From Desulfocapsa sulfexigens DSM 10523 (lineage in GTDB: Bacteria > Desulfobacterota > Desulfobulbia > Desulfobulbales > Desulfocapsaceae): 32,000 nt of DNA. Below, piece by piece: positions 16,334-32,000 of the stretch. Under the pieces are notes generated by a model. The model was not told where the DNA came from. It ran no database searches and saw nothing but the letters and a program-made list of their open reading frames with translations. The stretch's first letter is position 1. Each line of letters begins with the position of its first letter. Position numbers and translations under genes: made by a program. Location of the stretch: positions 2,970,001 through 3,002,000 of the forward strand of contig NC_020304.1 of assembly GCF_000341395.1 (NCBI RefSeq), read 5' to 3'.

Positions 16334-16769
16334 TATATTTCACTTACTTTATTAGATTCCACAAAGAAACTGAGGGGCAGGGGATATCGTGAAGCCGTCA
16401 TCTGTACTTCCAACCACTGTCATTAGGTGTTGCTAATTTCTTAATCTTGCCAGGATACTCTGTCAAGAGAGATCTGAGAAAAAAGTTGAGTCAGTGAGTG
16501 AGCCTAACTTCTTAAGGATTTATGCGACCGTCTTGGGAGTGGAAAACCTGATTTTTCCATTCTATCCTATTACTGTTCCTGATATAATAGTGTGTGAAGG
16601 TAAGGAATTGCTGCATAATATGTATGAATTGTGCTTAAATTAAACAGCAAGATTGTTTCATTAAACTCTTTTTATGTTGAAACGAATTGCTATTAGGGGT
16701 GACTACTGCCAAAGAATGTTATTGATTTGAAAAGGTTTGCTTATTTCTGGATTGGTGAGGTCGTTTATA

Positions 16770-17924
16770 ATGGGCACAGCAGAAAAATGTATCTGGTACA
16801 TTGAAGGTGGTATGAAGGATGGGAAATGTCTCGATGTCCCTATCCATGTATCACCTTTTTTTATTGGAAGAGATAAGGGGTGTCATCTTAGGGTGAAAGC
16901 TCCAGGTGTATCACGAAAACATGTTCAGCTTGAAGTCAATGGTGAAAAGATTTTTGTTGGAGATATGGGGAGTACCAATGGAACGTTTGTGAATCGTAAC
17001 AAAATTACAAGACAGGTTGAAATCAGATCTGGAGATACTATCCATCTGGGCCAGGAGGAACTCCGCATTACAAGGCGTTGTGATTACAAGAAAAATGATC
17101 CTGTTGCCGATGATATTTTGTATAATTCAACGATTATGATAAATATCAACGATCCGATGTTTGCCCTCAATGACGATTTTGTCCAGCAGGAAAAAGAGTT
17201 CAATCTTATGATAACCAACCGGGAGGTTACCATTGTTTTCCAACCGATAGTTTCCTTGTCTGAGTGCGAGGTTGTCGGTTATGAAGCGCTTGGGCGCGGT
17301 TTCAGAAGCGACCTTCCGGAGTCTCCCTGTGATCTGTTTCGGATCGCCGAAAAACTTGGCAGAGCAAAAGAATTAAGTTCAGTCTTCAGGAGCAGAGCAA
17401 TACAGACTTGTCATGAGCTTCCCGGTGCCCCGTTAATTTTTGTGAATACCCATCCTGTTGAAGACCTGACCACTGGACTTCAAAATAATATTGAAGAGAT
17501 GCGCAGGTTGACTGCTCCCTGGCAGGTGGTACTTGAGGTTCATGAGTCAGCAGTGACTGACACCAGAATGATGCTTGAGCTGAAGGAAATACTTCGAGAT
17601 CATGAAATGTATCTTGCCTATGATGATTTTGGTGCTGGGCAGGCAAGGTGGAATGAACTTGTGGAGGCTCCTCCAGATTATCTCAAATTTGACCTGCAAC
17701 TTATTAGGGACATTCATAAGAAAACAACACAAAAACAGGAAATGGTTCGTAAACTGGTTGATATCTGCCTTGATCAGGGTGCCTATCCATTAGCGGAATG
17801 TGTCGAAAACCATGAAGAACTGGAGGCCTGCAGGCATCTAGGCTTTACTCATGGGCAGGGATGGCTCTTTGGAAAACCAGCCGAAGCATCTTTTTTTGCA
17901 GCTACAAAAAATAAAAAGGCCTGA
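16770..17924 (+). CDS. FHA-domain / EAL-domain protein (putative c-di-GMP phosphodiesterase)
   Basis: FHA: 'FFIGRD..C.L......VSRKH.QL.....I.V.D.GSTNGTFVN'. EAL: 'FQPIV.....VVGYEALGR', 'FVNTHP', 'LEVHES', 'YDDFGAG', 'LKFD', 'AECVE', 'HGQGWLFGKP'. All catalytic signatures are present. The ORF opens with TTG at 16737. I prefer ATG 16770, which has GAGG 9 nt upstream. Confidence 0.85.
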   Translation: MGTAEKCIWYIEGGMKDGKCLDVPIHVSPFFIGRDKGCHLRVKAPGVSRKHVQLEVNGEKIFVGDMGSTNGTFVNRNKITRQVEIRSGDTIHLGQEELRITRRCDYKKNDPVADDILYNSTIMININDPMFALNDDFVQQEKEFNLMITNREVTIVFQPIVSLSECEVVGYEALGRGFRSDLPESPCDLFRIAEKLGRAKELSSVFRSRAIQTCHELPGAPLIFVNTHPVEDLTTGLQNNIEEMRRLTAPWQVVLEVHESAVTDTRMMLELKEILRDHEMYLAYDDFGAGQARWNELVEAPPDYLKFDLQLIRDIHKKTTQKQEMVRKLVDICLDQGAYPLAECVENHEELEACRHLGFTHGQGWLFGKPAEASFFAATKNKKA

Positions 17925-18170: not shown

Positions 18171-19442
18171 ATGAAGAATAGGGCAGTTATTCGTTTTTGG
18201 GCAATGATGACAATCCTGTTTTACAGCACAGCCCTTGCTCAGGCAGGGCAGGTGATAACCCAGGGTGAAAGGTCATGGGCCAAACAAGCTGTGCAGCAGG
18301 AAAAGTCACTAGCTGCCGCCAGTTCCCCGAATTCTATTGCGGTACTTTATTTTAACAACAAGTCTGGTCAGGAAAAATTGAACGCTCTGCAAAAAGGTAT
18401 GGCGGTGATGTTGATTTCTGACCTTTCTAAGGTAGAAGAGATTCAGGTTGTTGAACGGGTGAGAATGCAGGCCCTTCTGGATGAGATGGCTCTGGGAGCT
18501 TCCGGTCTTGTTACTGCAGAGACCGCCCCTAAAGTTGGTAAAATGCTCGGTGCCTCCTATGTGGCAAGTGGAGATATCCTCGGTGGAAATACCCAGGAAA
18601 TTTTAATAGATTCTTCTGTTCTTGAAATAATTTTTGAAACCCTTACTCGGCAGCCCATAGCCAGTGGAGCGCTGGATGAACTCTTCAGGCTGGAAAAAGA
18701 GATCCTCTTCAATATTATTGCTCAGATGAGGGTGACCATTTCTCCGGCAAAAAAAATCGAACTCGAAAAGCCATTATCTGTCAGTACTGCAGCTTTGCTG
18801 GCATTGTTTCTTGGTATTGATTACTCCGACAAGGGACGGTATGCCGAGGCTGCCAATATGTACCAGCAGGCTCTGGTCGAGGATCCTAAACTGGAAATGG
18901 CCAGGAGTGCCTTGCAGGAACTCAGAGCAATGGGACTGTCCACTGCTGAGGAGCTAGCGATAGTGGAGGAAACACCTCCTGCACCTCCTTCTCCAGCTGT
19001 GGAAGCTGAAGGCTCTTCCGTTGGCACTGTTGTTCTGGTTGGTCTGGGTGCCGCAGCCATTGGTGGAGCGGTCTTTGCCTTATCAGGATCAGGTTCCAGT
19101 GATGATAATGGATCATCTGATGTCGTTACACCAGAAGTTGATACCACTGCACCAGTTGCTACCCCATCACCTGGTACCAGTGAAACTCTTGACTGCATGA
19201 GCGGGTCTGTTGCTTTTTCTTTTTCTAAATCGATGTCGGACGCTGGTTCTGCTGAAATCTCTCCTAAGGATTTTGCCGACAGCCAGGGATGGTTCGGGGA
19301 CAGTTATGTTATTTCATGGGGGAATGATACCTCCACGTGCAGTAGCAGTCTAACATCCGTACAAATTACTTTAAGAAATTTTGAAGATACGGACGGAAAC
19401 GCACTGGCTAACCCTACAGTGTTTGATTATTCAGTTGAATAA
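18171..19442 (+). CDS. Secreted CsgG/LpoB-like module + TPR-like + hydrophobic segment + Ig-like C-terminal domain protein
   Basis: Signal peptide 'FWAMMTILFYSTALAQA'. Module 'IAVLYFNNKSG...QVVERVRMQALLDEMALGASGLV..ETAPKVGKMLGASYV.SG'. TPR-like 'GRYAEAANMYQQALVEDP'. Hydrophobic 'VGTVVLVGLGAAAIGGAVFAL'. C-terminal 'VAFSFSKSM......ISW......QITL..FEDTDGNAL' resembles SbsA-type bacterial Ig-like domains. AGGAG RBS upstream. Confidence 0.7.
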   Translation: MKNRAVIRFWAMMTILFYSTALAQAGQVITQGERSWAKQAVQQEKSLAAASSPNSIAVLYFNNKSGQEKLNALQKGMAVMLISDLSKVEEIQVVERVRMQALLDEMALGASGLVTAETAPKVGKMLGASYVASGDILGGNTQEILIDSSVLEIIFETLTRQPIASGALDELFRLEKEILFNIIAQMRVTISPAKKIELEKPLSVSTAALLALFLGIDYSDKGRYAEAANMYQQALVEDPKLEMARSALQELRAMGLSTAEELAIVEETPPAPPSPAVEAEGSSVGTVVLVGLGAAAIGGAVFALSGSGSSDDNGSSDVVTPEVDTTAPVATPSPGTSETLDCMSGSVAFSFSKSMSDAGSAEISPKDFADSQGWFGDSYVISWGNDTSTCSSSLTSVQITLRNFEDTDGNALANPTVFDYSVE

Positions 19443-19507: not shown

Positions 19508-20020
19508 TTAGAAAAGTTGTGCTGTGACAGCTTCAACTGCAGCAAGCAGGGCTGAAACATTATCTGCCCTTATCGTATGGACGCCGGTTCGAACAACCGC
19601 TCCCGATGCGACTTCAATAAGGCGAAGATCGATTCGCAGTTGTTCTCCTACCTGTTGAAATCCACCAAAGACCATAAACTGGGCGCCAAGCAGGCGTCCA
19701 ACCTCAAGTCGGCTTGTCTCATCAACTAGCACAGAACTTCCAAGAGATAATTCCTCCAGTGCCAATACCAATTTTTCACGCTCGACAACGATGCATTCTC
19801 CTGACTCTTTCAGGGTTTCAGCAACCTTTGCGGTGAGGAATTCTTGCATGTCATCCAGGATCTGGTTTTCTGTAACGCTGTAATTCTCCAGATTCCAGAC
19901 TGCAACTACACTGCCACTGCCAAAGTATTCCGGTGTGTATTGTGGCTGTGAACCAGCACAGGCGTTAAGGAACATTGGCAGCAGCGATATGAACAAAAAG
20001 GGCCGCAACAACTTCTTCAT
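19508..20020 (-). CDS. Lipoprotein consisting of one CsgG/LpoB-like module
   Basis: Lipobox 'MFLNAC' (Cys21). Module 'VVAVWNLEN......IVVEREKLVLALEELSLGSSVLVDETSRLEVGRLLGAQFMVFG...LRIDLRLIEV'. The ATG overlaps the upstream stop by 4 nt. Confidence 0.75.
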   Translation of the reverse strand: MKKLLRPFLFISLLPMFLNACAGSQPQYTPEYFGSGSVVAVWNLENYSVTENQILDDMQEFLTAKVAETLKESGECIVVEREKLVLALEELSLGSSVLVDETSRLEVGRLLGAQFMVFGGFQQVGEQLRIDLRLIEVASGAVVRTGVHTIRADNVSALLAAVEAVTAQLF

Positions 20021-21984
20021 GATTTGTTTCCTTCTGTAGTTGTAAAGCTCAGCTTCTCCTGCACCTTGTCATCCTGTTGTAATGGTCGTTTGGCATCACG
20101 AATACTGACAACACTCATATCCGGTTCCACTTGAATGACTTCCAGCATAGCCAGTGTTTGAGGAAGTCCATGCAAGGTTTTACCTTTGTATTGTATTGGT
20201 TCACCTTCCATAATGGCTTCGAAAGATGATCCGAGAACAACCCCCTGATTTGTGCCGATATTGATAACAGCCTGGTCACCAGTGATCTGGACAATGAAAC
20301 CCTGTAGTGGATATTTCTCCATAATAGTCCGTAAAATCTCCTGGGTGACCTTTTCTGTTTCCTCTTCAATATTTCTGGCTCCGGTGGCAAGTTTCCTGGT
20401 TAATACTTTGGGGATAGCGGTTGTTTCGGTATCTATCAGGCGGAGACTCAGTAGAGTCTGGTCAGGCAAATGGAGCAGGGCACCGGTGGAAACGATCTTC
20501 GCGGCAAGAATACGACCGAGTTGGAGGGCGGTTTCCGGGTCAGCAAGTTCCGAAGAACCAAGGTTGAGTTCCTCAAGCAGGCGGTCCATCAGTACACGTT
20601 CCACCACTCGTACCCGTCCCGACTGGTTGAGTTGTTCTGCAAGTTGGGTAGTCAAAACCATTGATAATCCGTCTCGTTCGCTCAACCCTCCTTTTTCGTG
20701 GAAATCTACAAAAGAAAGGACCATTGGCCGTGAAGTCCAGTTATCTTTAGAATTGAAGAAGGGGATTACGGTTTCTTTGGAACGAAAGCGTGTGGCTAAT
20801 TCCTTGACTAATTTGTCGATGCGCTGTTTTTCAGAAGTGTTTTTCTGCAACTCCATCATGTCTTTTGTTTGCCTTGCAAGAACTGCAGAAAACTGGTCGT
20901 TTTTATTAATGGTCATGGCCTGCTGAAACATTTCCATGGCTTTATCAAGTTGCCCTTCTTTCTGGTAGGTCACTCCCTTATTGGACATAGCTACAAGATT
21001 ATAGGGATCAAGTTCTACCGTCTGGTCGTAGTTGATACGTGCCAGATCAAAATTTTCTGTACTGGCATAAAGCCTGCCAAGCTGGTTATGGGCCTCAGCT
21101 TTCTGACTCAGGCTTCCCTCCGGTTTAGTTACGGCCTCCTGATATTCTGCCATTGCTTCTTCTTTCTTATTTTGAGCGTAAAGGATGTCACCTTTAATAA
21201 CATTGACAGCACCACGACCCGGTGCTTTGGTTTCAACCTCGTTGGCTACGGCCATAGCTTTTTCAACATTGCCCTCTCTTGCATAAATTTTAGCAAGACC
21301 CTCTTTTCCGAGAATTTCACCTTCTCCAGGTTCCTGTGCCAGATCGTTAAAAATATCTTCCGCTTTATCTACTTCATCTGCCTTGAGAGCCGCGTAGCCA
21401 TAGACAGTTTTTGCCTCAAAGGAATCCGGGTTGTCGGACTGCACTTCCAGACTGATGGCCTGAGCCAAGAGAGGTTCGTTACGCTGTAATTCTCTTTCAG
21501 CGAGGCTGATCAACATTTTTTCAGTACTTTCTCCTCCTCCCTGAAAGGAATTAATGATCCTGCGTTCTGGTCCCAGGATATAGACTGTTGGAAGAATGAG
21601 TTCTGCGTGATATGTGGAACTGATTCCTTTTTGATCCTGCATCACCGGAAAACCTGCCTTATGGGTTACGATGAAATCTGAAACACTGTTTTTACTGGAA
21701 GTGGTAATACCCCATACCAGCAGGTCTGTATCCTTGAAGGAATTGAGAAGTTTGTTTAGAGTCAACAGTCCTTCCTGGCTGGCAGGAGAACTTGTATCAA
21801 AAAAATAAAGGACTATGAGAGAATGGTCTTTCATAGCTGAAAGTTGATAAGGACGGCCATAAACATCTTCCAGAGTGAAATCAGGGGCGACGTCACCTGG
21901 ATTGAACTGTGCCCGGCTTATTGCCGGATTCGTGAGAAGAAGTAGCAATGCTAAAAAGAGCAAAAGTTTGATTTGGTGGTGCAT
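20017..21984 (-). CDS. Secreted multidomain protein: Cys-less redoxin fold + TPR repeats + CsgG/LpoB-like module + C-terminal beta domain
   Basis: Signal peptide 'LLLFLALLLLLTNPAISRA'. AhpC/TSA-redoxin-like 'APDFTLEDVYG.PY.LS..K....VLYFF' carries 'DTSSPAS' where CxxC is expected. There are at least 5 TPR-like units (aa ~190-370). Module 'MVLSFVDF.....RVVERVLMDRLLEELNLGSSELADPETALQLGRILAAK'. C-terminal 'GFIVQITGDQAVINIGTNQGVVLGS.FE'. Confidence 0.75.
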   Translation of the reverse strand: MHHQIKLLLFLALLLLLTNPAISRAQFNPGDVAPDFTLEDVYGRPYQLSAMKDHSLIVLYFFDTSSPASQEGLLTLNKLLNSFKDTDLLVWGITTSSKNSVSDFIVTHKAGFPVMQDQKGISSTYHAELILPTVYILGPERRIINSFQGGGESTEKMLISLAERELQRNEPLLAQAISLEVQSDNPDSFEAKTVYGYAALKADEVDKAEDIFNDLAQEPGEGEILGKEGLAKIYAREGNVEKAMAVANEVETKAPGRGAVNVIKGDILYAQNKKEEAMAEYQEAVTKPEGSLSQKAEAHNQLGRLYASTENFDLARINYDQTVELDPYNLVAMSNKGVTYQKEGQLDKAMEMFQQAMTINKNDQFSAVLARQTKDMMELQKNTSEKQRIDKLVKELATRFRSKETVIPFFNSKDNWTSRPMVLSFVDFHEKGGLSERDGLSMVLTTQLAEQLNQSGRVRVVERVLMDRLLEELNLGSSELADPETALQLGRILAAKIVSTGALLHLPDQTLLSLRLIDTETTAIPKVLTRKLATGARNIEEETEKVTQEILRTIMEKYPLQGFIVQITGDQAVINIGTNQGVVLGSSFEAIMEGEPIQYKGKTLHGLPQTLAMLEVIQVEPDMSVVSIRDAKRPLQQDDKVQEKLSFTTTEGNKS

Positions 21985-22014: not shown

Positions 22015-23664
22015 CTATTCTGGTAAAAGAGAGATGGAGAGTGGAACCAGTCCTCCCTTGCTGAGGTTCAGCTGGGCCTGCCAGTTAAGATGTCCCTGCA
22101 GTTCAAGTTTCACCTCATGTTTTATTGCTGTAACCTCAATCTCCAGGGGGGTTAATCCATGATAGTTCCCGTCTATGTAGAGGCTTGCTCCAGATGGACT
22201 GCTGTTTATTTGTAAGGTTGTTATTTTTTTCTGGATATCGGAATTCTCTTCTTTTCCTATTGGTGGTAGTGAGGCTACTACTGTACCAGGCGTAATTGGT
22301 GACGAAGGTTTTAAGCTGCCATCTGGCTCAATTCCCAGTTCAACTTTTGTCAAGGAAGCTGGTTTCGTGGCAGTTTCAGGCTCGTTTGTGGAGGGAAAAA
22401 TTGGTGCATTCTCTCTGTCATCTGTAAAAAGATCGTCAAACGACTCTTCGACCCGTTGTGCCTGCAACGTTTCTTTTTTTATTTCTGGTACTGCATCGGG
22501 TACGGGAGAGGCTTCTTCAGAATCAGGTGATATAACGGGTGTGGGTGCCACAGATGATTGGGGGACGGAAGGTACATAAATCGGGGCAAGTGGTTCTTCA
22601 GGTTTACTTGGTAGTACTACCGGAGGAACGGGTGTGGTCTCCTCATCTTGCACAGCAATGTGCGAGGGCTGTTCCGATATTGCGGCCGTATTTTTTTGTT
22701 GCTGGACATCATCTGCTGTAGGTGGCCTCATGGTGAGATAAGCGACCAGGGCAGCTCCGCAGAAGAGGAGAGCGGTCGCTATCATAAAGCCGTTATAAGA
22801 ACGCCGTTTTTCAGGTGCTGTCTGAATAATTGTTTCGCTAAAAGATTCCTGAGATTGAACATTAAGACAGTTGCCAAGAAGTTCTGACATCTCCTGGCCA
22901 CTGCGGAATCGATCTTCAGGTTTTCTGGCCATGGCTTTCAGGATCAGCTTTGAGAGAGCCGGGGGGATATCAGGGTTGAGCTGATCCGGTGGAACAGGAT
23001 CATCCTGGGTGATGGCTCTAAAGACGGCAGTGAGGTTCTCACCCTTGAATGGACGATGACCTGTGGTGAGCTCATAGAGAATGACACCTAAAGAGTAAAG
23101 ATCGGATCGACCATCAACGGTTTGTCCCATGACCTGCTCAGGGGCCATATAGACAGGGGTACCAAGGATCTCACCGGCTCGAGTCATCTGCTGACCATCC
23201 GGATCATCGATATGGGCAATCCCAAAGTCTGTTACCTTAAGAATATTTTCAGGAGTACAGATAATATTTGGCGGTTTGATATCACGGTGAATGATCCCTC
23301 TTGTATGTGCATAATGGAGGGCCTGGGCTATCTGTATTCCGATATCAACGATGTCGGTCAGGCTTAAATTGCCAGCTTTGACCAGTTGATCCATGGATTG
23401 CCCTTCCAGAAATTCCATCGCAATGTAGATGGTGCCGTGATCCTGGCCAATATCATAGACTGTCACTATGCCTGGATGGGAGAGTCGTCCAATGGCGGTA
23501 GCTTCTTTGAGAAAACGCTGCACGTAGTCCTCGGTGGTAAGTCGATCTTCACGAAGTACCTTCAGTGCCACCATACGGTTAATCTGAGGGTCATGGGCCT
23601 GATAAACCTTACCCATGGCACCTCTACCGAGTTCGGAAACGATTTCATACCTACCGTATTTCAT
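22015..23664 (-). CDS. Hanks-type Ser/Thr protein kinase with TM helix and periplasmic PEGA domain (PpkA analogue)
   Basis: 'LGRGAMGKVY', 'VALKVL', 'HRDIKPPNI', 'DFGIA', 'GTPVYMAPEQ', 'D.YSLGV.LYE'. TM 'FMIATALLFCGAALVAYLTM'. Pro-rich linker. C-terminal PEGA 'LQINSSPSGASLYIDGNYHGLTPLEIEV'. Confidence 0.9.
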   Translation of the reverse strand: MKYGRYEIVSELGRGAMGKVYQAHDPQINRMVALKVLREDRLTTEDYVQRFLKEATAIGRLSHPGIVTVYDIGQDHGTIYIAMEFLEGQSMDQLVKAGNLSLTDIVDIGIQIAQALHYAHTRGIIHRDIKPPNIICTPENILKVTDFGIAHIDDPDGQQMTRAGEILGTPVYMAPEQVMGQTVDGRSDLYSLGVILYELTTGHRPFKGENLTAVFRAITQDDPVPPDQLNPDIPPALSKLILKAMARKPEDRFRSGQEMSELLGNCLNVQSQESFSETIIQTAPEKRRSYNGFMIATALLFCGAALVAYLTMRPPTADDVQQQKNTAAISEQPSHIAVQDEETTPVPPVVLPSKPEEPLAPIYVPSVPQSSVAPTPVISPDSEEASPVPDAVPEIKKETLQAQRVEESFDDLFTDDRENAPIFPSTNEPETATKPASLTKVELGIEPDGSLKPSSPITPGTVVASLPPIGKEENSDIQKKITTLQINSSPSGASLYIDGNYHGLTPLEIEVTAIKHEVKLELQGHLNWQAQLNLSKGGLVPLSISLLPE

Positions 23665-24602
23665 TGCTTATCCTGCTCATTGAGAAAATCGATAACGGTT
23701 TCAAGAGGGATTAAAAAACCGATTCCGGTGGATACTCGATGGCGCCCTTTGACAATGGCTACAAAAGCACCATTTTCATCGAACACAGGACTGCCACTGC
23801 TGCCTGGTTGAATTTCCATGCTGGCCTGCCATATTGGCTGATTATTTGCCATACGGGGAGGGCCATTGATAAAACCTGAACTGATTGTGCCCCGGAGGCT
23901 TACCGGGCATCCTATTGAGAAGACTTTCTCTCCCATCCCTAGCAAGTTGCGCCCCCCTTCGAGTTCGATAAATTGATCTTTATCGGTTGTGATCTGTATG
24001 AGAGCCAGGTCACGATCAAAATCGATTTTTACAATATCACCCTTGAAATGGGTGTTTATCGTGGAGATGATGTTGACCTCCTCGTGTTCTTTAAGGTCAT
24101 GTGCAGTGGATAGAATTAGCCCTTTTCTGTCTATGAAAACTCCGGAAAACTGAACAGTCTCTCCCTGATGATTTGCATTAATACAGGCAACGGTACCAAT
24201 TTTTTCCAGGATAGTTGCCGGGATTTGCGCTTGCTGCTGGTTCGTTGTGTGGAAGGAGAGTGTATTCTTATCCTTAACGTACTGGAGGAGTTCTTTAAAG
24301 TTCTCTTCTCTCTGTGTATCGTTTTCAACATGGACAGTCAGCTTTGTAGTTAGAGGTGAGTGGGGAGTGAGTTCGATAGACCACCCCTGGTTCAGTTGTA
24401 AGCTTCGGATATGAATCGGACCACCTGGGGTGGTGATGACCTGGAAGGTGAGGTCATTCTTCTCTAGCCATCGGGAAACGGAATCTCGTGTTGCTGCTAT
24501 GGAGAGAGGATATTGCTCAATGATTTCAGAAGAGTGAACGGTGTTCGTGGCGGATAGCCATGCTATGGTGAGGAGAAAAAGGAAGGGGAAATATTTGTTC
24601 AT
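23661..24602 (-). CDS. Secreted trypsin-like (S1/chymotrypsin-fold) serine protease with unknown N-terminal domain
   Basis: Signal peptide 'FPFLFLLTIAWLSATNTVHS'. Triad contexts 'ILSTAHDL' (His), 'DRDLALIQI' (Asp), 'IQPGSSGSPVFDENG' (Ser). Start and stop both overlap neighbours by 4 nt. Confidence 0.8.
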   Translation of the reverse strand: MNKYFPFLFLLTIAWLSATNTVHSSEIIEQYPLSIAATRDSVSRWLEKNDLTFQVITTPGGPIHIRSLQLNQGWSIELTPHSPLTTKLTVHVENDTQREENFKELLQYVKDKNTLSFHTTNQQQAQIPATILEKIGTVACINANHQGETVQFSGVFIDRKGLILSTAHDLKEHEEVNIISTINTHFKGDIVKIDFDRDLALIQITTDKDQFIELEGGRNLLGMGEKVFSIGCPVSLRGTISSGFINGPPRMANNQPIWQASMEIQPGSSGSPVFDENGAFVAIVKGRHRVSTGIGFLIPLETVIDFLNEQDKQ

Positions 24603-25339
24603 GGTAAGACTTCCACCAGTACTGCGGTAATATTGTCACGGCCACCATTGGTCTTAGCACGTTCAATAAGCGTGGCAGTTCGTTGCTGCAGCGATTCTCT
24701 TCTGAGGAGTATTTTCGTAATAACCTCTTCGGTAACCATATCAGTCAGTCCATCGGAGCAGAGAAGAAAAAGATCTTTTGTCAAATATCGCCCTCGAATA
24801 ATATCAATTTCCAGTTTCTCTTCAATCCCTACTGCTCTGCTGATTACATTACGTAAACGGTGTGTTCGTGCAGCTTCTTTGGAAATCAAGCCTTGATCCA
24901 CCTGATTCTGGACAAGCGAATGATCCTTGGTCAGGCGGGTCAGCTTTCCATTGCGAAGGCGGTATGATCTGCTGTCTCCTATATGACCCAGAGCAAAGCC
25001 ATTATGATGAAAGAGGAGAAGTTCAGCCGTACATCCCATGCCACTGTGGTCTGGGGTGCTAAGAATATGGCTTCTGATTTCCTTATTGGCCGTAAGAAAA
25101 ATCTTCTTAATCAGAGCCACAGTGTTACTTTCTGATTGATTTCCAGATTGAGGAATTAGTTGAGCAGCTGTATCTGCAAATATTCGACTTGCAATCTCAC
25201 CGGCGGCTGCACCGCCCATACCGTCAGCAACAAGAAAACAATATGTGTCTTTCTGTATAAAGTAGCTATCTTCATTACTGCTACGATGCAAGCCGATATC
25301 AGTCAAGCCGCTGGCTGATAACTTGAGGTTCATTTCCAT
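24599..25339 (-). CDS. PP2C-family Ser/Thr phosphatase (PppA/Stp analogue)
   Basis: 'R..NEDS', 'VADGMGG...GE.AS', 'HIGDSR.Y', 'LLCSDGL.D', 'GGRDNITAV'. These are the complete PP2C metal-binding signatures. Confidence 0.9.
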   Translation of the reverse strand: MEMNLKLSASGLTDIGLHRSSNEDSYFIQKDTYCFLVADGMGGAAAGEIASRIFADTAAQLIPQSGNQSESNTVALIKKIFLTANKEIRSHILSTPDHSGMGCTAELLLFHHNGFALGHIGDSRSYRLRNGKLTRLTKDHSLVQNQVDQGLISKEAARTHRLRNVISRAVGIEEKLEIDIIRGRYLTKDLFLLCSDGLTDMVTEEVITKILLRRESLQQRTATLIERAKTNGGRDNITAVLVEVLP

Positions 25340-25680: not shown

Positions 25681-26703
25681 ATGAATATCCCAGATAAAAA
25701 AGTACAGTTAGTGCATCTGAACGGGCCGTTTAAAGGTGAAATTCAAGATTTCTTTGAATCGGTTATTGTTATTGGGAGACATCCTGATTGCCAGCTGGTC
25801 TTTCCGAGTGATTCCACAGCAATTTCACGGAAACATGCTGAAATTAGACGGGAGGGGAACCGCTTCAAGTTTCTGGATTACAGCGCAAATGGTACCCTGA
25901 TCAATGGTATAGAGCAAAAAGATGTTTTTTTAAAAGATGGTGATGTGCTGATTATTGGTGGAGAGGGAGGGCCAAAGGTCAGTTTTTTGAGTTCAAAAGT
26001 TACTCCCGAAGAAAAGGAGGCCATTGCTTCTTCTGGAGATATGAATAGACAGCAGGATCCAAGTGTATCGCTGTCACCGCCTGATAAGGTGCAGACACCT
26101 AAAATAGAAGAGTCGCCTGAAAATGTTCCGCTAGCTCAGTCTCTGCAGAAATCACCAGTGATAGAACCTTTGCCATCGTCATCGATGAAAGGTCCTCGAG
26201 ATTCTGCGCCGATTCCTACAGTTAATAAAAGCTTTATCATCCAGTATGGGGCAACCCTTACCTCCTTTAAGAAGTTACCAATCATCATCGGGAGTGGCAG
26301 TGATTGTGACTGTACATTGCAGCATCATGCTCTGCTTGACCACCATGCACAGATTTTCTTCCGGGACAATCAGTACTGGGTGAAAGACCTTACCGGCCGT
26401 GGAATGCTGACGGTCAATTTACGACCGGTTCAGTCTGAATCATCGCTTCAGCCAGATACCTGTCTGGCCCTCACACCTCAGGGGCCTAAGTTTCAATTTC
26501 TTGGCGAAGGCAGGCTAGCTGAAATTGAGACAACGGAAGAATCGGAAAAGAGACTGGAACCAGTGCAATCAGACAAGTACCAGCAACAGCAATCAAGAGG
26601 ATCCAGTGTCAAACCATCCGGAGGCGGCAAAAAGCTGTTCTGGATTCTGTTTACTCTGCTGCTTGTACTCGGGATTCCAATAGCAGTCTGGTATTTCCTG
26701 TAA
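25681..26703 (+). CDS. Tandem-FHA protein with C-terminal membrane anchor (Fha/TagH-like)
   Basis: FHA1 is canonical: 'IGRHPDC.LVF......ISRKHAEI.......F.D.SANGTLING'. FHA2 (aa ~184-275) is degenerate. C-terminal TM 'LFWILFTLLLVLGIPIAVWYFL'. It is divergent from the PP2C operon. Confidence 0.8.
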   Translation: MNIPDKKVQLVHLNGPFKGEIQDFFESVIVIGRHPDCQLVFPSDSTAISRKHAEIRREGNRFKFLDYSANGTLINGIEQKDVFLKDGDVLIIGGEGGPKVSFLSSKVTPEEKEAIASSGDMNRQQDPSVSLSPPDKVQTPKIEESPENVPLAQSLQKSPVIEPLPSSSMKGPRDSAPIPTVNKSFIIQYGATLTSFKKLPIIIGSGSDCDCTLQHHALLDHHAQIFFRDNQYWVKDLTGRGMLTVNLRPVQSESSLQPDTCLALTPQGPKFQFLGEGRLAEIETTEESEKRLEPVQSDKYQQQQSRGSSVKPSGGGKKLFWILFTLLLVLGIPIAVWYFL

Positions 26704-26793
26704 CTATCTTGTTTTTGAGATCTACTCAAAATGTACCGTGTAACAAATACAATATCTCCGTCAGTTCAAGAATAACTCAGCAAGGAGGCCTGC

Positions 26794-28362
26794 ATGGAAC
26801 AGATATCTATTCCAGATTTCCCTTTTTCCATTCTTGCACTTGCACCGTTTACTTCAGAAGTAAATCCTGGTGTGACCGTCAAACTTCTTGCAGTTGATCC
26901 TTTGGATATTGATCAGGCACTAACTGCGTTGATGCCATCTTTTTTTCTCTCTCTCCCAGTTGCAGAATGTCCTGCCGGTGGGCTTCATCTTCGATTCAGG
27001 AAAATGCGCGATTTCACCCCTGACGGTCTTTTGCAGAGTCAACCATATCTTGAGAATTTGCTTGCCGCTCATCGTTTCTGCCTTGAGGCTGAACAGCAAA
27101 AGAAGTCTACAGAGGTAATTATTGAAGGAGTTAAGAAGTGGCCTGATCTACCCCCGATCTCACTGACTCAGAAAAAAAAGGACGAGGAAGAAAAAAAGAG
27201 TTCCCTGGAGAGTATTTTATCCATGGTGGCTTTGCCGGAAGAAGACAGTTCAGTCAAGGGAGCCACTGCAGGAGGAACTGGATTTTATGGCGCACTGGCC
27301 CGTAAAATTCTAGACAGCATCTATACCGATCCAATATTTCGATCCCTTGAGTCCTGCTGGCAGGGTTTGCGATATCTCGGTCGCCATCTTGCTGAGGCTG
27401 GTGGTCGTTTGTCAATATTACCGATATCTCATAATAACATTGAAAAAGTCCTGGATGAACAAAGAGAAGAGATCATACTTGATCCTCCTTCTGTCATTCT
27501 TGTTGATCAGCCCTTAAGCAGTTCAGAGAGATCCGTGCAAATGATGACTCAGCTCGCTTCCTTTGGCCAGGAGATGCTTGTACCTGTGCTTACCTGGTTG
27601 GATGCTTCGTTTTTCCAGATTGAAAATTGGAAGAATCTTGATAGCCTTTCTTTTCTTCCCCACCACTTGGAAAAAGCATCCTTTGCCAGGTATAAAGGTT
27701 TGCAGAATTCCGATTTGAGTCGCTGGATAGGGTTGAGCTGCAATCGTTTTGGGACTCGTTTCCCCTATGGGCCTGAGAACCGATCACGCCTTCTTCCTTT
27801 CAGGGAAAAGGAGATGCTCTGGCTCTCTTCGGTATGGGGAGTTGCAGCTCTTATGGCTTCCCGCGTAAGGCAAACCGGATGGCCAACGGGTATGGCCTCA
27901 TCACGGCAGATCTGTCTGGAAGATTTGGCTCTTGCCCTGGAAGGTTCGGTTGAACAAAGTCCGCTTGAGGTACAATGGAGTGAAAGTCGGCTGGAACAGG
28001 TTTCCCGTTGCGGCATTATGGCGCTGGCCGGATGGAAGGGAAGGGATAGCGCTTTTCTTGCCGGTGATGTCATGGCCTCGACGGATAGTAGTTTGAGTTA
28101 TCAGACCTTGCTTTGCAGAGTGAGCCACTTTATCCTCTGGTGTCGGGACAATTGGCAGGAACCTTTGCTGGCAGATGAATTGGCTAGTCGATTGCACACT
28201 GCCTTTCAACTGTTTACCAAAAAACAGGGGGAGTATCCTGTTGGTGATTTTGGGGTGGAGTGTCACGATGATAAAGGGGCTATTCAGGTCTTGTTTCGAT
28301 GGATCCCTTCCAGGCACATTCTCCCCAGCGGACAGGAGATAGTGCTGGAGTTTGGCTGGTAA
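26794..28362 (+). CDS. Fused TssB(VipA)-like / TssC(VipB)-like T6SS contractile-sheath protein
   Basis: aa 5-100 track VipA: 'DFPFSILALAPFT' vs 'ELPLKVLMLGDFT', and 'LHLRFRKMRDFTPDGLL...L.NLL' vs 'VDLNFESMNDFSPESVV'. aa ~165-522 track VipB: 'FRSLESCWQGLRYL' vs 'FQAMESAWRGLKLF', 'RWIGLSCNRFGTRFPYGPEN' vs 'RYLGLTAPRFLLRVPYDPIEN', 'LWLSSVWGVAALMA', 'TGWP', 'E...SRCGIMAL....GRDSAFLAG', 'CRVSHFILWCRDNW'. A Lys/Glu-rich linker (KKKDEEEKK) joins the two parts. AAGGAGG RBS upstream. VipA/VipB comparisons are from memory. Confidence 0.65.
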   Translation: MEQISIPDFPFSILALAPFTSEVNPGVTVKLLAVDPLDIDQALTALMPSFFLSLPVAECPAGGLHLRFRKMRDFTPDGLLQSQPYLENLLAAHRFCLEAEQQKKSTEVIIEGVKKWPDLPPISLTQKKKDEEEKKSSLESILSMVALPEEDSSVKGATAGGTGFYGALARKILDSIYTDPIFRSLESCWQGLRYLGRHLAEAGGRLSILPISHNNIEKVLDEQREEIILDPPSVILVDQPLSSSERSVQMMTQLASFGQEMLVPVLTWLDASFFQIENWKNLDSLSFLPHHLEKASFARYKGLQNSDLSRWIGLSCNRFGTRFPYGPENRSRLLPFREKEMLWLSSVWGVAALMASRVRQTGWPTGMASSRQICLEDLALALEGSVEQSPLEVQWSESRLEQVSRCGIMALAGWKGRDSAFLAGDVMASTDSSLSYQTLLCRVSHFILWCRDNWQEPLLADELASRLHTAFQLFTKKQGEYPVGDFGVECHDDKGAIQVLFRWIPSRHILPSGQEIVLEFGW

Positions 28363-28407
28363 CCCGTTGTTCGGCTCCAGTTTTTTACCACTGAGAGTAA
28401 ATGAGAA

Positions 28408-29175
28408 TCAGCCGGCCGGGTTTCGCAACTGCTGTTGCAGAAGATCTGGCATATTGTCGATGGCATCCCTGCTGACAATTTCCTGGAAGGCAGGAATACC
28501 AGAGAGCTGGGTCACCTCGGTAATAAATTTATCAGGTGGCAGGAAGGTTGATAATGGTGTGCTGATCATAACTGCCGGAAGATTGCCAAGATCTGGTAAT
28601 TTGTAAATATCTACCTGATAGCGAAGATCTTCAAGCAAGGTCTTCAGATTTGGAAAATGTTCCAGTAGCAGAACTAGACTGAGGTGGCAGATTATGGCCT
28701 GGCGCATATCTTCAGTCTGACGAGCCTCCTTGCCACTCAGCATACCTCGCAGACGATCCAGGGGACATTCGCTCTGATAAGAAACGATGAAACGGGTAGG
28801 TGAGGTGATGGTAATGGCTTTTGCATCGCTACCATCAATGGTCAGTTCATACTGCAGCGGGGTGCATTCAAGAACATTGGAAATGGCTGGTAGCGGTGGC
28901 TGGAGTTTCCTGGGGAGTTGAAATGGTGATTCGCAGAGGGCACTGAAACTTTCCTGCAGTTCTGCAAATGCTTTGTCTGAACCATGGGTCTCCTGTTGAG
29001 AGGCACTTTTAATGTAGGTTCCGAGGAGTTTACGTGGAATGAAGAGCGGTCGCAGGGTGCTGAGATGGTCTCTCAGGCGTTGACCCAGAAAGGAGCTGAT
29101 CTTATCGGTTGCCTGTCGGAGTTCAAGGAATTCCTGGCTGTCCAGATCGGTGCGGGGAATGTTGAGTTCAGTCAT
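28408..29175 (-). CDS. Hypothetical protein (no recognisable domain), last gene of the vgrG operon
   Basis: Long uninterrupted frame with no TM or signal peptide. ATG at 29175 is preferred. The ORF-track start at 29217 is a TTG that overlaps the upstream gene. The composition looks coding and no competing ORF exists. Confidence 0.55.
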   Translation of the reverse strand: MTELNIPRTDLDSQEFLELRQATDKISSFLGQRLRDHLSTLRPLFIPRKLLGTYIKSASQQETHGSDKAFAELQESFSALCESPFQLPRKLQPPLPAISNVLECTPLQYELTIDGSDAKAITITSPTRFIVSYQSECPLDRLRGMLSGKEARQTEDMRQAIICHLSLVLLLEHFPNLKTLLEDLRYQVDIYKLPDLGNLPAVMISTPLSTFLPPDKFITEVTQLSGIPAFQEIVSRDAIDNMPDLLQQQLRNPAG

Positions 29176-29200
29176 AGTATTTTCTCTTTTGTGTTGTAGG

Positions 29201-29980
29201 CTATTGTAATGAAACAATAAATGCCTCGGTTTCCTCTTCAGAAGAGTAAGGGCAGAACATTATTTTTTTCGGTGACCCTGCAACCTTTAGATAATAGGAA
29301 CTGGACGAATCGATTTCATTTTGCACTCCCCAGGCCGTAAACTTTTGATCACCCATTGTTATTTCCAAGCCCTGCTGCGGGTAGTTGAGGACTGTCTTTT
29401 CAGGGAGTTGACCAGCTGGACCGACAGCGTGGAGTTTGATTTCACCATCGCTGACCCCAAAAATTGCACCCTTCCAGTTCCCTTTTAAGGGGCCCACTTC
29501 AAACCATTGACCGATGTTGGGGATGCCATAGACATCCATCCTGTACTCTGACTGGATCTTGTGCAGCGGCGTATGGACGATGGCTATCAGCTTGGCTGCG
29601 TAGGATTCGTTTGCAAGTGGTAAAATCTTTACATTGGCGAAGGGTGTAGGCAGGGTGTCTGGCTGTATAGTATCTTCTCCGATTTGGAGAATAACAATAG
29701 GAAAGTCCTGGCCCCGTTCTGCCTGCACTCCAAGAGCCAGCATTGCCAGTCCGTAACGGAAGCTTGGCTGCTGAAGACTTTCAGCTGAAGTTACTAGCAG
29801 CCACATGGAAACATTGTGATCGACCAATTGCTTACGGGGTGCTGCCCAGGCCATTTTGTCGAGGTCATCTGTAAAGAAGTGACCATCTGCAGCGAGGCCA
29901 TAGCTCTGCAGTTTGCCCATAACCGACTGAACCGTTTCCTGGGAACAGTTGAATGCACTGAGCCATATTTTTTTCTGCAT
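29201..29980 (-). CDS. Hypothetical protein; N-terminal flavodoxin/TIR-like alpha-beta segment (tentative) + beta-rich C-terminal domain
   Basis: ATG at 29980 sits 7 nt after the upstream stop, with AGGA overlapping that stop. The ORF-track start at 30052 is a TTG inside the upstream gene. 'KIWLSAF......V..V...L...GL...GHFF.DD......W......L.....MWLLVTS..S' loosely follows a TIR-like/DUF1863 pattern. I see no catalytic signature. Confidence 0.55.
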   Translation of the reverse strand: MQKKIWLSAFNCSQETVQSVMGKLQSYGLAADGHFFTDDLDKMAWAAPRKQLVDHNVSMWLLVTSAESLQQPSFRYGLAMLALGVQAERGQDFPIVILQIGEDTIQPDTLPTPFANVKILPLANESYAAKLIAIVHTPLHKIQSEYRMDVYGIPNIGQWFEVGPLKGNWKGAIFGVSDGEIKLHAVGPAGQLPEKTVLNYPQQGLEITMGDQKFTAWGVQNEIDSSSSYYLKVAGSPKKIMFCPYSSEEETEAFIVSLQ

Positions 29981-29987
29981 GGTATTC

Positions 29988-31454
29988 CTATTTTGCCGCA
30001 ATAATGAGCGGATTGTCAAAATCAAAGCCAAAGAGACCGGGGTTTTCTCCAATCACTGCCGCTGAAAAAATGTAGAACACATAGTCATAGGTTTGTTCGG
30101 GTATTTTATCACGATACTGTTTAAAAAACTGCCAGAAATTACGTTCTTTTGGATTATTCGGCATATCTCTCACAAGTTGAATAACGCGGTTTTCTCCCCA
30201 GTTGTACGAGGCCATTACCAATAGCCCGGAGGCCTGAGCATCGGTATCGTAAATTTTTCGCAGGTACTTTGCTGCGGCCACGGTTGATTTGGCAAAATTA
30301 TGCCGCTCGTCAAGGGGATCTACCTTTCGTTGCTTAAAAAGGGGACCTGTTTGCAGGCCATATCGAGAGCCGGTTTCAGGAATGAATTGCCACATACCTT
30401 TGGCAATACCCCAGCGGGTTTTAGGGCCCAGGGCATTTACGTTAAAATTACTTTCCTGCAGAGCCAGATAAAAGAACTGTGGTGGGAGAAAATAATAGCG
30501 CATGGTTCTGGCAATTGGAGAAGTGTAGCCATTGTTTTCTGCGCGTTCCAGGGCGTTAACAAGACGGCTGCTTGACTGCCACTTCTTGATGTAGCGTATG
30601 ACTTCACTGGTAAAGTCAGCAGGAACAAATATTTCACATTCACCAAAAATTCTCGCAGTTTTTAGAATTGCCTCTTCCTGGGGACTGATATTTTTATAGA
30701 TCCCGAGAGTGTCGACAAATTCGCTATAGCTGTTTTCCAACTCTCTTGCCTGCTGTTTATAATATTCTACCCTGGCAATGGTAGCAGTGTCATCACTGTC
30801 TCGTGCTGTTTGAAGAACATCTGCAAACTCTACTTCCAGTCCTTTCATGGTATAGAAGATTTCAGCAGCGAGTTTTTTTTGTTTCTCAACCTGCAGATGC
30901 ATGTAGATGGCAACTGAGCCAGCAATACAAAAAAGGCAGGTAACCAGGCCAATGATGATACCATACTTTCTTTTCTGTTTTTTCTGAACCTGGGCAAAGG
31001 CACGTCTAACCATTATGGTGTGCTCACCTGCGTCCCCGTCATCCTTATCACCGAAATAATGTTCCTGATAGTGGGACATGGATCGTGGAGTTCCAGGCTT
31101 TTTAGTTTCCTGGAAAGGCTGGTCAACCGACAGTGTAAGGAGTGGCCCGTTTCTTCCCAGTTCAATCCTGGTCAGTTTTTTAATGGCAATGCGATTAACC
31201 CGGTTACCGTCAACAAAAATACCATTGGCACTATTACAGTCTTGAATCCACCAGGTGTCTGCCAGAAAAATTACCTCGGCATGGTGGCGACTGACTACCG
31301 GATCGGTAATAGCTATATCACAGTCGGGATCACGACCGACACGAAAAGAGGAGGAAAATGCGCGTTCTGCAAACTGTCCGGCTGGCCATGTTGCTGAGAC
31401 TAAAACAGCTGGAGGTGACGAATTCTGCCCGTTATTTTCCAGCCTTTGAATCAT
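29988..31454 (-). CDS. FHA domain - TM helix - lytic transglycosylase (SLT family) protein
   Basis: FHA: 'FRVGRDPDCDIAI.D..VSRHHAEV.......IQD.NSANGIFVDG'. TM: 'YGIIIGLVTCLFCIAGSVAIYMHL'. SLT: 'LALQESNFN.NA.....GIAKGMWQFIPETG..YGL', 'D.LDERHNF.KST.AAAKYL', 'MASYNWGENRV', with the catalytic Glu in 'QES'. Confidence 0.8.
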   Translation of the reverse strand: MIQRLENNGQNSSPPAVLVSATWPAGQFAERAFSSSFRVGRDPDCDIAITDPVVSRHHAEVIFLADTWWIQDCNSANGIFVDGNRVNRIAIKKLTRIELGRNGPLLTLSVDQPFQETKKPGTPRSMSHYQEHYFGDKDDGDAGEHTIMVRRAFAQVQKKQKRKYGIIIGLVTCLFCIAGSVAIYMHLQVEKQKKLAAEIFYTMKGLEVEFADVLQTARDSDDTATIARVEYYKQQARELENSYSEFVDTLGIYKNISPQEEAILKTARIFGECEIFVPADFTSEVIRYIKKWQSSSRLVNALERAENNGYTSPIARTMRYYFLPPQFFYLALQESNFNVNALGPKTRWGIAKGMWQFIPETGSRYGLQTGPLFKQRKVDPLDERHNFAKSTVAAAKYLRKIYDTDAQASGLLVMASYNWGENRVIQLVRDMPNNPKERNFWQFFKQYRDKIPEQTYDYVFYIFSAAVIGENPGLFGFDFDNPLIIAAK

Positions 31455-31463
31455 ATCAATTGA

Positions 31464-31871
31464 TTAGGGTGCTAACAAAAGGACTTTGGTTTGGCTGGGT
31501 ACTATCCTCATACCAGGAACATTTGTACCATTCTGCAGAGTTGGACTTGTCAGCCGTGTCGCTGGTTTTCCCTGGAAAAGCACGGTAAACGATCCTGCTA
31601 GATGCCGTGAAGGCCCCATGACTCTGCCAGAGGCTACTCCCATGGAGACACCTGCATTGTCACCATTGGTCATGGGGGTGACCGTTCCCATGTTATGAGC
31701 TGGCATTCCCATGATAAGAATTTTCGTACATGCGGTACCAGGATTTGCTGTGGGTCCCATTGCAATATTCGGATAAGGAATAGGTACAGGCGCAGGTGCT
31801 GGTGGAGCAGGGGTTAAACAAACGTCAGGAAAAGCAAAATCCTGACCCATCATTTGTGAATTGGCAAACAT
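31464..31871 (-). CDS. Stand-alone PAAR-like (DUF4150-type) T6SS spike-tip protein
   Basis: 'FPDVCLTP.......PIPYPNIA', 'T..KILI.G.PA.N......MT.GD..G...GV.SG...G......GS..V...GKP..RL.......NG.N..G' is the DUF4150/PAAR-like pattern. GAGGAGG RBS upstream. It starts 12 nt after the upstream stop. Confidence 0.75.
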   Translation of the reverse strand: MFANSQMMGQDFAFPDVCLTPAPPAPAPVPIPYPNIAMGPTANPGTACTKILIMGMPAHNMGTVTPMTNGDNAGVSMGVASGRVMGPSRHLAGSFTVLFQGKPATRLTSPTLQNGTNVPGMRIVPSQTKVLLLAP

Positions 31872-31883
31872 TATTATCCTCCT

Positions 31884-32000
31884 CTAACCCATATGGATCA
31901 TTTTCCCATCAATCTTTATATTTTCTTTTGCAGTAACAACAGAATATTTGCCACGTAAGGACATCAGTCTTTCTGCATTGTAATCGATCTTACCAGCCTT
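31884..32000 (-). CDS. 3' end of a VgrG / phage-spike-like gene (partial, runs off the window)
   Basis: Hand translation of the minus strand gives ...KAGKIDYNAERLMSLRGKYSVVTAKENIKIDGKMIHMG*. The alternating beta-helix-like ending 'IKIDG..I..G' and the position directly upstream of a PAAR-like gene fit a VgrG C-terminus. Only 38 codons are visible. Confidence 0.4.
   Translation of the reverse strand, partial: KAGKIDYNAERLMSLRGKYSVVTAKENIKIDGKMIHMG

Follow-up and report, generated by a model that had tools for sequence, protein, structure and literature searches.

UWK_02690 of Desulfocapsa sulfexigens, a fused TssB–TssC protein and possible accessory paralogue of the type VI secretion sheath

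The sheaths of type VI secretion systems (T6SS) are described as obligate heterodimers of TssB and TssC, and in Vibrio an N-terminal helix of TssC is the element recognised by ClpV. Several accessory factors act on these sheaths (TssA, TagA, TagJ and ClpV), none of which, to our knowledge, is related to the sheath in fold. Here, we report on UWK_02690, a gene annotated in databases as encoding a “hypothetical protein” and located in a stretch of 32,000 nucleotides (nt) from Desulfocapsa sulfexigens DSM 10523 (NC_020304.1, positions 2,970,001–3,002,000, forward strand; hereafter “the window”), whose product is one chain joining a TssB-like N-terminus to a TssC-like body. Our overall reading, to which we give a probability of about 0.5, is that this fused protein (“D-type” below) is an accessory, sheath-derived paralogue that modulates the assembly of the TssBC sheath; that it is accessory, and not the sheath of the system, we consider very probable.

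In the solved sheaths, a beta-hairpin of TssC accepts the C-terminal strand of a neighbouring TssC from the same protofilament and also takes the N-terminal strand that a TssB of another protofilament supplies; both linkers are directed at the baseplate, where TssE is thought to be the acceptor (PMC5807055; PMC5813253). The sheaths of R-type pyocins and contractile injection systems have a minimal sheath core, with little or no outer recycling domain (PMC5807055). Compared to the canonical T6SSi sheath proteins (VipA/VipB, HsiB1/HsiC1; 3J9G, 5N8N, 5URW), UWK_02690 has the same fold and is homologous in both halves, keeps the hallmarks of the sheath (DF.P[DE], LE..W.GL, R.PYG, a predicted C-terminal hairpin and terminal strand) and, like canonical sheath genes, belongs to genes found at T6SS loci. 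In contrast to these two-chain sheaths, it is a single chain, devoid of the TssB beta1 arm, of the TssB tail and of the first ~35–70 residues of TssC, and it carries a family-specific linker (WPDLP, LDxILxMVALP).

A single chain with two sheath halves

The open reading frame (ORF) starts with an ATG, fixed by the position of an AAGGAGG ribosome-binding site 6 nt upstream, and encodes 522 amino acids (aa), among which are all the VipA- and VipB-like motifs quoted in the initial annotation, a model's reading of the letters alone (KMRDFTPD, aa 70–77; LESCWQGLRYL, 185–195; RFPYGPEN, 322–329; GWP, 362–364). As a single sequence, it passes the gathering threshold of the Pfam family VipB (PF05943: 98 bits vs. 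27, E 7e-28, aa 231–424), while it stays under that of VipA (PF05591: 18.1 bits vs. 24), a match to which is nevertheless carried, precomputed, by many of its homologues. The scores against the NCBIfam families are under the curated cut-offs, both for the TssC equivalog (TIGR03355: 71.8 bits, far under 271.5) and for TssB (TIGR03358: 13.4 bits vs. 97.25). When a family profile was built from 32 homologues of UWK_02690, it matched solved TssC chains (E 2.8e-46, query aa 158–427) as well as TssB chains (E 2.5e-11, query aa 5–93). The single-polypeptide fusion first proposed is thus borne out by a profile matching both families, even though the single sequence alone is recognised by VipB and not by VipA.

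Profile–profile and structural comparisons point in the same direction. With hhalign, residues 73–417 of the 498 of a canonical TssC are aligned (E 6e-27), and the alignment to a canonical TssB reaches residue 135 of 172 (E 1.8e-10). The alignment-based AlphaFold model (predicted local distance difference test, pLDDT, 86.9; predicted template modelling score, pTM, 0.86) has the fold of TssC domains 1 and 2, and its best Foldseek matches in the PDB are all T6SS large sheath subunits (3J9G, 5URW, 5N8N and others; E 1e-18 to 1e-12, TM-score on target 0.60–0.72). The sheaths of R-type pyocins, of extracellular contractile injection systems (eCIS) or their cytoplasmic counterparts (3J9Q, 6RAO, 8BKY) and of phages come far behind (E 1e-6 to 1e-4, TM-score on target 0.33–0.50). 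Like UWK_02690, pyocin and eCIS sheaths are single chains, but they have both donor arms and tube and baseplate genes of their own, whereas the neighbours of the fused gene are of T6SS type (VgrG, PAAR-like, ClpV, TssF/G); a phage, pyocin or eCIS sheath was rejected as an identification on both counts.

The fusion is real and no assembly artefact. For an assembly-fused gene pair, which the initial annotation had asked to be excluded, or a decaying pseudogene, nothing speaks beyond the unusual architecture, and this explanation has a negligible probability because positions 26623–32000 of the window (5.4 kb) recur at 100% identity in an independent assembly (Logan SRR25712206) and because the homologues keep the architecture. 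Indeed, nearly all of 81 homologues are 515–530 aa long and share the fused organisation at identities down to 29%, while in an exhaustive search full-length matches to proteins of ~515–535 aa came from over 100 clusters at 50% identity. Moreover, the motifs that span the TssB/TssC junction are invariant and the AlphaFold model is confident. Set against the ~657 aa of TssB (162 aa) plus TssC (494–495 aa) in related clusters, the fused protein is ~135 aa shorter, close to the ~130 aa initially estimated.

By sequence comparison, its composition is approximately TssB residues 30–135, a linker of ~55 aa, and TssC from about residue 40–70 to the end. The TssB-like segment opens at the beta2 strand FPFSILALAPF (canonical LPFVVGVVGDF; “LPF...GDF”), the first residue of the protein lying 8 residues before this “FPF” strand, and neither the comparison of N-termini nor hhalign reveals a counterpart of the canonical N-terminal donor strand beta1 (RVQITYDVE / ERVNIVYRP), which in the case of RVQITYDVE stands ~15 residues ahead of beta2 in canonical TssB (the arm being TssB1 residues 15–38). 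This absent arm of ~29 aa is a loss that went unmentioned in the initial annotation. At the other end, the segment stops at a helix near TssB residue 135: the C-terminal tail beyond is lost, as had been stated, but the equivalent of helix D117–L133, also counted as missing, is kept. From the TssC part, roughly the first 35–70 residues are absent (robust alignments begin at TssC 32–73), and with them probably the region that holds the ClpV helix in Vibrio; the loss had been recognised correctly, though its extent had been put at 60–90 aa.

The Lys/Glu-rich linker described initially exists, yet it is more than a spacer, since it includes two conserved motifs: WPDLP, which is nearly invariant (aa 116–120, nt 27139–27153), and a second one in which [LV]D[NDS][IL]LxMVALP comes after a run rich in S/T (aa 134–148, nt 27193–27237) and which a strict pattern retrieves in 69 of 78 homologues. 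AlphaFold predicts aa 125–162 to be disordered (pLDDT <50). At the C-terminus, the model features a beta-hairpin (aa 484–505; strands 484–493 and 496–505) and a terminal strand (aa 516–521), all at pLDDT >90, before the last residue, an invariant W522, and at the motif level the region aligns with the canonical “...RPHF...FTLSLVG”; the hairpin and donor strand of the sheath handshake are thus predicted to be kept.

Association with T6SS loci and relation to other fused families

A scan of species-representative genomes, in which ORFs were clustered de novo, provided 49 loci, almost all from Desulfobacterota-type metagenome-assembled genomes (MAGs); the D. sulfexigens locus, with its own motif CNRFGTRFPY, is not among them. 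A gene for an FHA protein lies directly upstream and on the same strand in 32 of the 40 loci where that side is visible, at −4 to ~130 nt in most of them (with 4-nt overlaps in four). In the window, the corresponding gene is 90 nt upstream of the fused gene and codes for a double-FHA protein whose best NCBIfam match is TagH (TIGR03354), at 66.2 bits, under the cut-off of 120.25 and over the FHA region only. UWK_02690 is in an operon with a membrane-anchored, TagH-like double-FHA protein, while a Ser/Thr protein kinase, a PP2C phosphatase and two conserved partners of unknown function, u269 and u283, are encoded nearby. Of the 49 loci, 27 have the kinase, 22 u283, 21 PP2C, 14 u269, 10 a PAAR-like protein, 10 the trypsin-like peptidase, 9 the AhpC/TSA-TPR-CsgG-like-FlgT_C protein and 8 VgrG.

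Among the 18 loci that are fully flanked (at least 8 kb on both sides), T6SS spike genes (VgrG or PAAR) occur within 10 kb in eight, which is far above chance. Three loci (L007, L014, L053) lead from VgrG to ClpV within this distance, and L007 further to TssG and TssF. The contig bearing the L007 TssF carries the run TssK-TssL-TssM-x-TssA-TssB (162 aa)-TssC (494 aa, VipB+VipB_2)-Hcp-TssE-TssF-TssG-ClpV-VgrG, followed by a HEAT protein, u283 and u269, and then by the fused gene in convergent orientation, so that the coexistence of a D-type gene with separate tssB and tssC is observed in the one related cluster of which the whole is visible. Another such cluster runs from VgrG into DUF2169-pentapeptide, as in Desulfocapsa, and in L042 the genes VgrG...PAAR-like-x-fused gene-u283 are all co-directional. 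As an observation apart, in four Desulfobacteraceae MAGs (L025, L032, L034, L043) the FHA-fused pair comes immediately after murG-murC-(303-aa gene)-ftsQ-ftsA-ftsZ plus a radical-SAM gene, the 303-aa gene being unannotated but murB by position, and on the other side of the pair are genes for TPR, LysM-polysaccharide deacetylase and cyclase proteins.

Within the window, no tssB or tssC gene was found besides the fused one. The initial annotation had placed the gene apart from any baseplate or tube genes, but this is an artefact of the window edge, because contigs matching the window at 99–100% identity extend beyond its right edge, where they carry DUF3540, pentapeptide, DUF2169-pentapeptide and VgrG genes, and because D. 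sulfexigens has a TssF (P0210), 65% identical to that of L007. The species is moreover scored T6SSi=1 in Table S3 of TXSScan (PMC4793230). Most likely, judging from the related cluster, the fused gene is one more sheath paralogue, located at the VgrG/PAAR end of a T6SSi cluster with TssB, TssC, Hcp and ClpV of its own.

The surroundings recall the T6SS threonine-phosphorylation pathway (PpkA/PppA/Fha1-TagH), in that kinase, PP2C and FHA genes stand beside a T6SS in both cases. Unlike in the described pathway, the FHA partner has here two FHA domains and a membrane anchor and scores below the TagH cut-off, and two more FHA fusions (FHA-EAL and FHA-SLT) belong to the same neighbourhood. We know of no sheath-like protein in that pathway as described.

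Fused sheath genes are not restricted to the D-type. A distant match (P0081) leads to an A-type family of at least 1196 clusters (at 90% identity), with proteins of ~500–525 aa carrying both PF05591 and PF05943, in Acidobacteriota, Gemmatimonadota and “delta” lineages. Of four A-type loci, three are part of T6SS clusters: two of these clusters have separate TssB and TssC, and one is cut within ClpV. The remaining locus is an orphan. A-type and D-type have in common the single chain, the truncation of TssB near residue 130 and the presence in T6SS clusters with separate TssB/TssC, and hhalign joins them in one continuous alignment (E 8e-57). In contrast to the D-type, the A-type keeps the TssB N-terminal arm and TssC 21–374 (including the GSLLD helix), lacks the whole TssC C-terminal domain (375–498) and has no u269, u283 or FHA partner genes; the unknown genes that flank it, considered as possible homologues of u269 and u283, have no similarity to them. 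Large methyltransferases are also encoded near D-type and A-type genes (of MethyTransf_Reg/PKMT-type in L022, 3134–4729, and in L045), one of them, of MTS-type, directly downstream of an A-type gene (L059, 1736–3256).

The closest relatives of the D-type by hidden Markov model (HMM) score (270–290 bits) are the L-type proteins (~610–645 aa; Poribacteria and others). Common to both are the linker motif (e.g., DPLDALLEMVDLPE) and the C-terminal region, as well as, in L062, the partner genes u283 and u269. The L-type differs from the D-type by ~100 additional aa, corresponding to more of the TssB tail and of the TssC N-terminus, and by the loci seen, in whose vicinity T6SS, FHA and kinase genes are missing. 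In L062 (3221–7904), homologues of u283 (E 2.4e-58) and u269 (E 8.9e-54), a 630-aa L-type gene and the gene of an HTTM membrane protein form an operon, next to a WD40 gene (1113 aa) and a caspase gene. A Candidatus Poribacteria-like contig (L063, 2215–13398) carries two fused TssB-TssC genes in a row (542 and 612 aa), downstream of which proteins of 1019, 380, 183 and 907 aa have no significant Pfam match; it could represent a very divergent sheath-based system. In pairwise similarity, A-type and L-type are each nearer to canonical TssC than to the D-type, while the D-type is nearest to the L-type. Because of this position of the A-type, the fusion may have arisen more than once, with the A-type as a possibly independent event. 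UWK_02690 shows the traits of what we define here as the D/L clade: a single chain with both sheath parts, the linker LDxILxMV.LP, the C-terminal handshake, and u283 and u269 adjacent (28408–30052). Finally, a profile search placed the fused sheath module inside two very long proteins, P0440 (2151 aa, residues 1015–1473) and P0447 (1116 aa, residues 520–993).

Accessory subunit or autonomous assembly

If UWK_02690 acts on the TssBC sheath, its anatomy suggests a way. The protein would retain the sheath core, a beta-hairpin able to accept the linker strands of its neighbours and its own C-terminal donor strand, while it lacks the TssB N-terminal donor strand, through which protofilaments are cross-linked, and probably the TssC N-terminus recognised by ClpV. 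Such a combination would make docking on the TssBC lattice, or co-assembly with it, plausible, but neither the extension of the full two-linker mesh nor the usual recycling, and docking that does not extend the mesh would favour a modulator that acts on sheath assembly in sub-stoichiometric amounts, be it by priming, capping or stabilising. The FHA partner might tie the use of the protein to the threonine-phosphorylation pathway. This specific docking mechanism, drawn from sequence and model, is tentative. The occurrence of the A-type inside T6SS clusters with separate TssB/TssC counts in support of the accessory reading, and one alternative left by the initial annotation, a sheath-derived protein other than a contractile sheath, fits the evidence.

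Several points weigh against a modulator of the TssBC sheath. We infer its tie to the lattice from sequence and structural models, and the separate tssB/tssC of D. sulfexigens from the related cluster, the TXSScan score being one that might in principle count the fused gene. The S/T-rich patch of the linker has no conserved Thr in the homologue alignment (Thr in ~25% of the sequences per position, Ser only in D. sulfexigens), which makes a universal FHA-binding site unlikely, and the patch was rejected as a conserved FHA phospho-Thr site. Furthermore, 10 of the 18 fully flanked D-type loci are without any T6SS gene within 10 kb, L062 is without one in 16.7 kb despite its u283 and u269 homologues, and the tandem fused pair of Poribacteria has no recognisable T6SS neighbours on the local contig. 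These last three observations would be expected of an autonomous sheath-derived module, in which the fused protein, u269 and u283 (with the FHA protein in Desulfobacterota) build an assembly of their own (e.g., a non-contractile filament, scaffold or signalling polymer) that needs no T6SS tube, baseplate or sheath and whose adjacency to T6SS genes reflects shared regulation only. The conservation of the u283-u269-fused trio across D-type and L-type, its co-directional operon with the HTTM protein near WD40 and caspase genes, the position of some loci directly downstream of ftsQ-ftsA-ftsZ and the greater likeness of the D-type to the L-type than to canonical TssC argue for it as well. We nonetheless hold it to be unlikely, though to be taken seriously, in view of the spike genes that eight of the 18 fully flanked loci have at a distance of less than 10 kb, of the several loci that lead straight into ClpV-TssG-TssF, of the co-directional arrangement of L042 and of the T6SS TagH as best family match of the FHA partner, while the absence of T6SS genes around L062 and in Poribacteria concerns a local stretch of contig. 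A bolder version is doubtful: the fused protein, u269 and u283 would be the core of a new machine, a tube-less single-chain polymer or scaffold derived from the T6SS sheath, acting independently in certain phyla (as in the L062 operon and the Poribacteria pair) and wired to Ser/Thr kinase and FHA proteins beside the T6SS in Desulfobacterota.

The linker is at the heart of another explanation, according to which the protein is a decoy or adaptor directed at ClpV or TssA, with the LDxILxMVALP helix as the docking peptide for the T6SS ATPase or cap protein and the body as a scaffold. This motif is the sole strongly conserved element of a variable, disordered linker, it resembles the N-terminal helix of canonical TssC (“SLLEEITQAT”/“LLDRII”), and in one canonical TssC the top match of a position-specific scoring matrix (PSSM) of the motif falls exactly on that helix. 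The PSSM match to the ClpV-binding helix is, however, non-significant (its score is reached by 184 of 500 shuffles), and hhalign puts the motif on the second N-terminal TssC helix (VEALIAQLIEP / ...VEPHLV), with agreement of the conserved Pro and of the spacing, that helix being a domain-3 packing helix distinct from the ClpV site (PMC5807055). An identity of the motif with the ClpV-binding helix is thus not supported, and we regard the decoy as improbable. Finally, at face value, a single chain with the sheath fold and the handshake region, in a window where no separate tssB/tssC is visible, might be the actual sheath of the system, i.e., a covalent TssBC protomer replacing the two subunits, as implied by the initial annotation. 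This is highly improbable, and the main sheath of some new T6SS subtype was likewise rejected: separate TssB (162 aa), TssC (494 aa), Hcp and ClpV share a contig with a D-type gene, the scores stay far under both equivalog cut-offs (TssB and TssC), a canonical-type TssF is encoded in D. sulfexigens either shortly past the window or elsewhere, and the link between protofilaments requires a TssB N-terminal donor strand (PMC5807055), which is missing.

The fused forms add a third, single-chain sheath-like protein to TssB and TssC; environmental genomes by the thousand (from Desulfobacterota, Acidobacteriota, Gemmatimonadota and Poribacteria) encode it, very often beside a T6SS. The truncations of the two main types are complementary (the D-type is without the N-terminal donor arm, the A-type without the C-terminal acceptor and donor domain), a pattern that would be expected of subunits ending or modulating a lattice. 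If so, these proteins would offer a new handle on the control of sheath length, initiation or stability, and a natural re-fused sheath protomer bearing on the split of TssB/TssC from single-chain phage sheaths. Fused genes are labelled in databases as “T6SS contractile sheath large subunit” or “sheath domain-containing protein”, and the “sheath large subunit” annotation can distort T6SS gene counts. As for the novelty of the fusion, which the initial annotation would have given up for an architecture both common and already characterised, it is common (see the A-type clusters above), but our literature search found no paper on a TssB-TssC fusion or on a sheath-like accessory protein; the fused form is uncharacterised in the literature found, yet it is not the radical single-polypeptide sheath first proposed.

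Gene neighbourhood within the window

The features discussed here are collected in Table 1. The genes from PP2C to the CsgG/TPR-type proteins are transcribed divergently from the FHA/fused pair, on which the u269, u283, FHA-SLT and PAAR-like genes converge from the other side.

Table 1. Coordinates of the fused gene, its segments and its neighbours in the window
Feature	Positions	Strand	Basis and remarks
Fused TssB-TssC sheath paralogue (D-type), UWK_02690	26794..28362	+	522 aa; Pfam, profile search, AlphaFold, Foldseek, hhalign
TssB-like segment, aa 1–101	26794..27096	+	~TssB 30–135; profile, hhalign, N-termini comparison
Linker, aa 102–157	27097..27264	+	~55 aa; WPDLP and S/T-rich/LDxILxMVALP motif; pLDDT <50 at aa 125–162
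TssC-like body, aa 158–522	27265..28359	+	Profile, AlphaFold, Foldseek, hhalign, C-termini comparison
Double-FHA protein, operon partner	25681..26703	+	Pfam FHA (two stretches); C-terminal transmembrane segment
u269, conserved partner of unknown function	28408..29217	-	True protein ~255 aa, from M15
u283, conserved partner of unknown function	29201..30052	-	Likely start M26 (nt 29977), 258 aa
FHA + SLT lytic transglycosylase	29988..31454	-	Pfam
PAAR-like (Tox-PAAR-like/DUF4150) spike tip	31464..31871	-	Pfam; last visible gene of a VgrG-DUF2169-pentapeptide-DUF3540-PAAR-like module running off the window
PP2C Ser/Thr phosphatase	24599..25339	-	Pfam, NCBIfam
Trypsin-like peptidase	23661..24602	-	Pfam
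Ser/Thr protein kinase, C-terminal PEGA domain	22015..23664	-	Pfam, NCBIfam
AhpC/TSA-TPR-CsgG-like-FlgT_C multidomain protein	20017..21984	-	Pfam
Small CsgG/LpoB-like protein	19508..20020	-	Pfam, NCBIfam
Second CsgG/LpoB-like protein	18171..19442	+	
FHA-EAL cyclic di-GMP phosphodiesterase	16737..17924	+	
MORN-repeat protein	4913..6709	+	598 aa, ~15 repeats

The partners u269 and u283 have no match in Pfam, NCBIfam, PDB sequences or PADLOC, and an anti-phage defence system, for which PADLOC gives no support, was rejected. The single-sequence AlphaFold model of u283 (29204–29977, minus strand) is of low quality (pLDDT 50), with a pLDDT of ~70 over the N-terminal 125 aa; since the model is poor, the TIR/flavodoxin-like Foldseek matches of this part (SPARTA TIR-APAZ, SARM1, MyD88, type II dehydroquinase) are a hint only.

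The two CsgG/LpoB-like proteins and the AhpC/TSA multidomain protein flank the kinase, and the set formed by the AhpC/TSA-TPR-CsgG-like-FlgT_C and CsgG/LpoB-like proteins recurs in 7–9 of the 49 loci; this set might serve as a sensor module of the envelope, perhaps comparable to TagQRST upstream of PpkA. Three FHA proteins (FHA-EAL, double-FHA and FHA-SLT) surround the one kinase/PP2C pair, which suggests a single phospho-Thr signal read out into cyclic di-GMP turnover, peptidoglycan remodelling and the sheath-like protein. Farther away, the window also encodes a protein of MORN repeats that is apparently unrelated to the fused gene.

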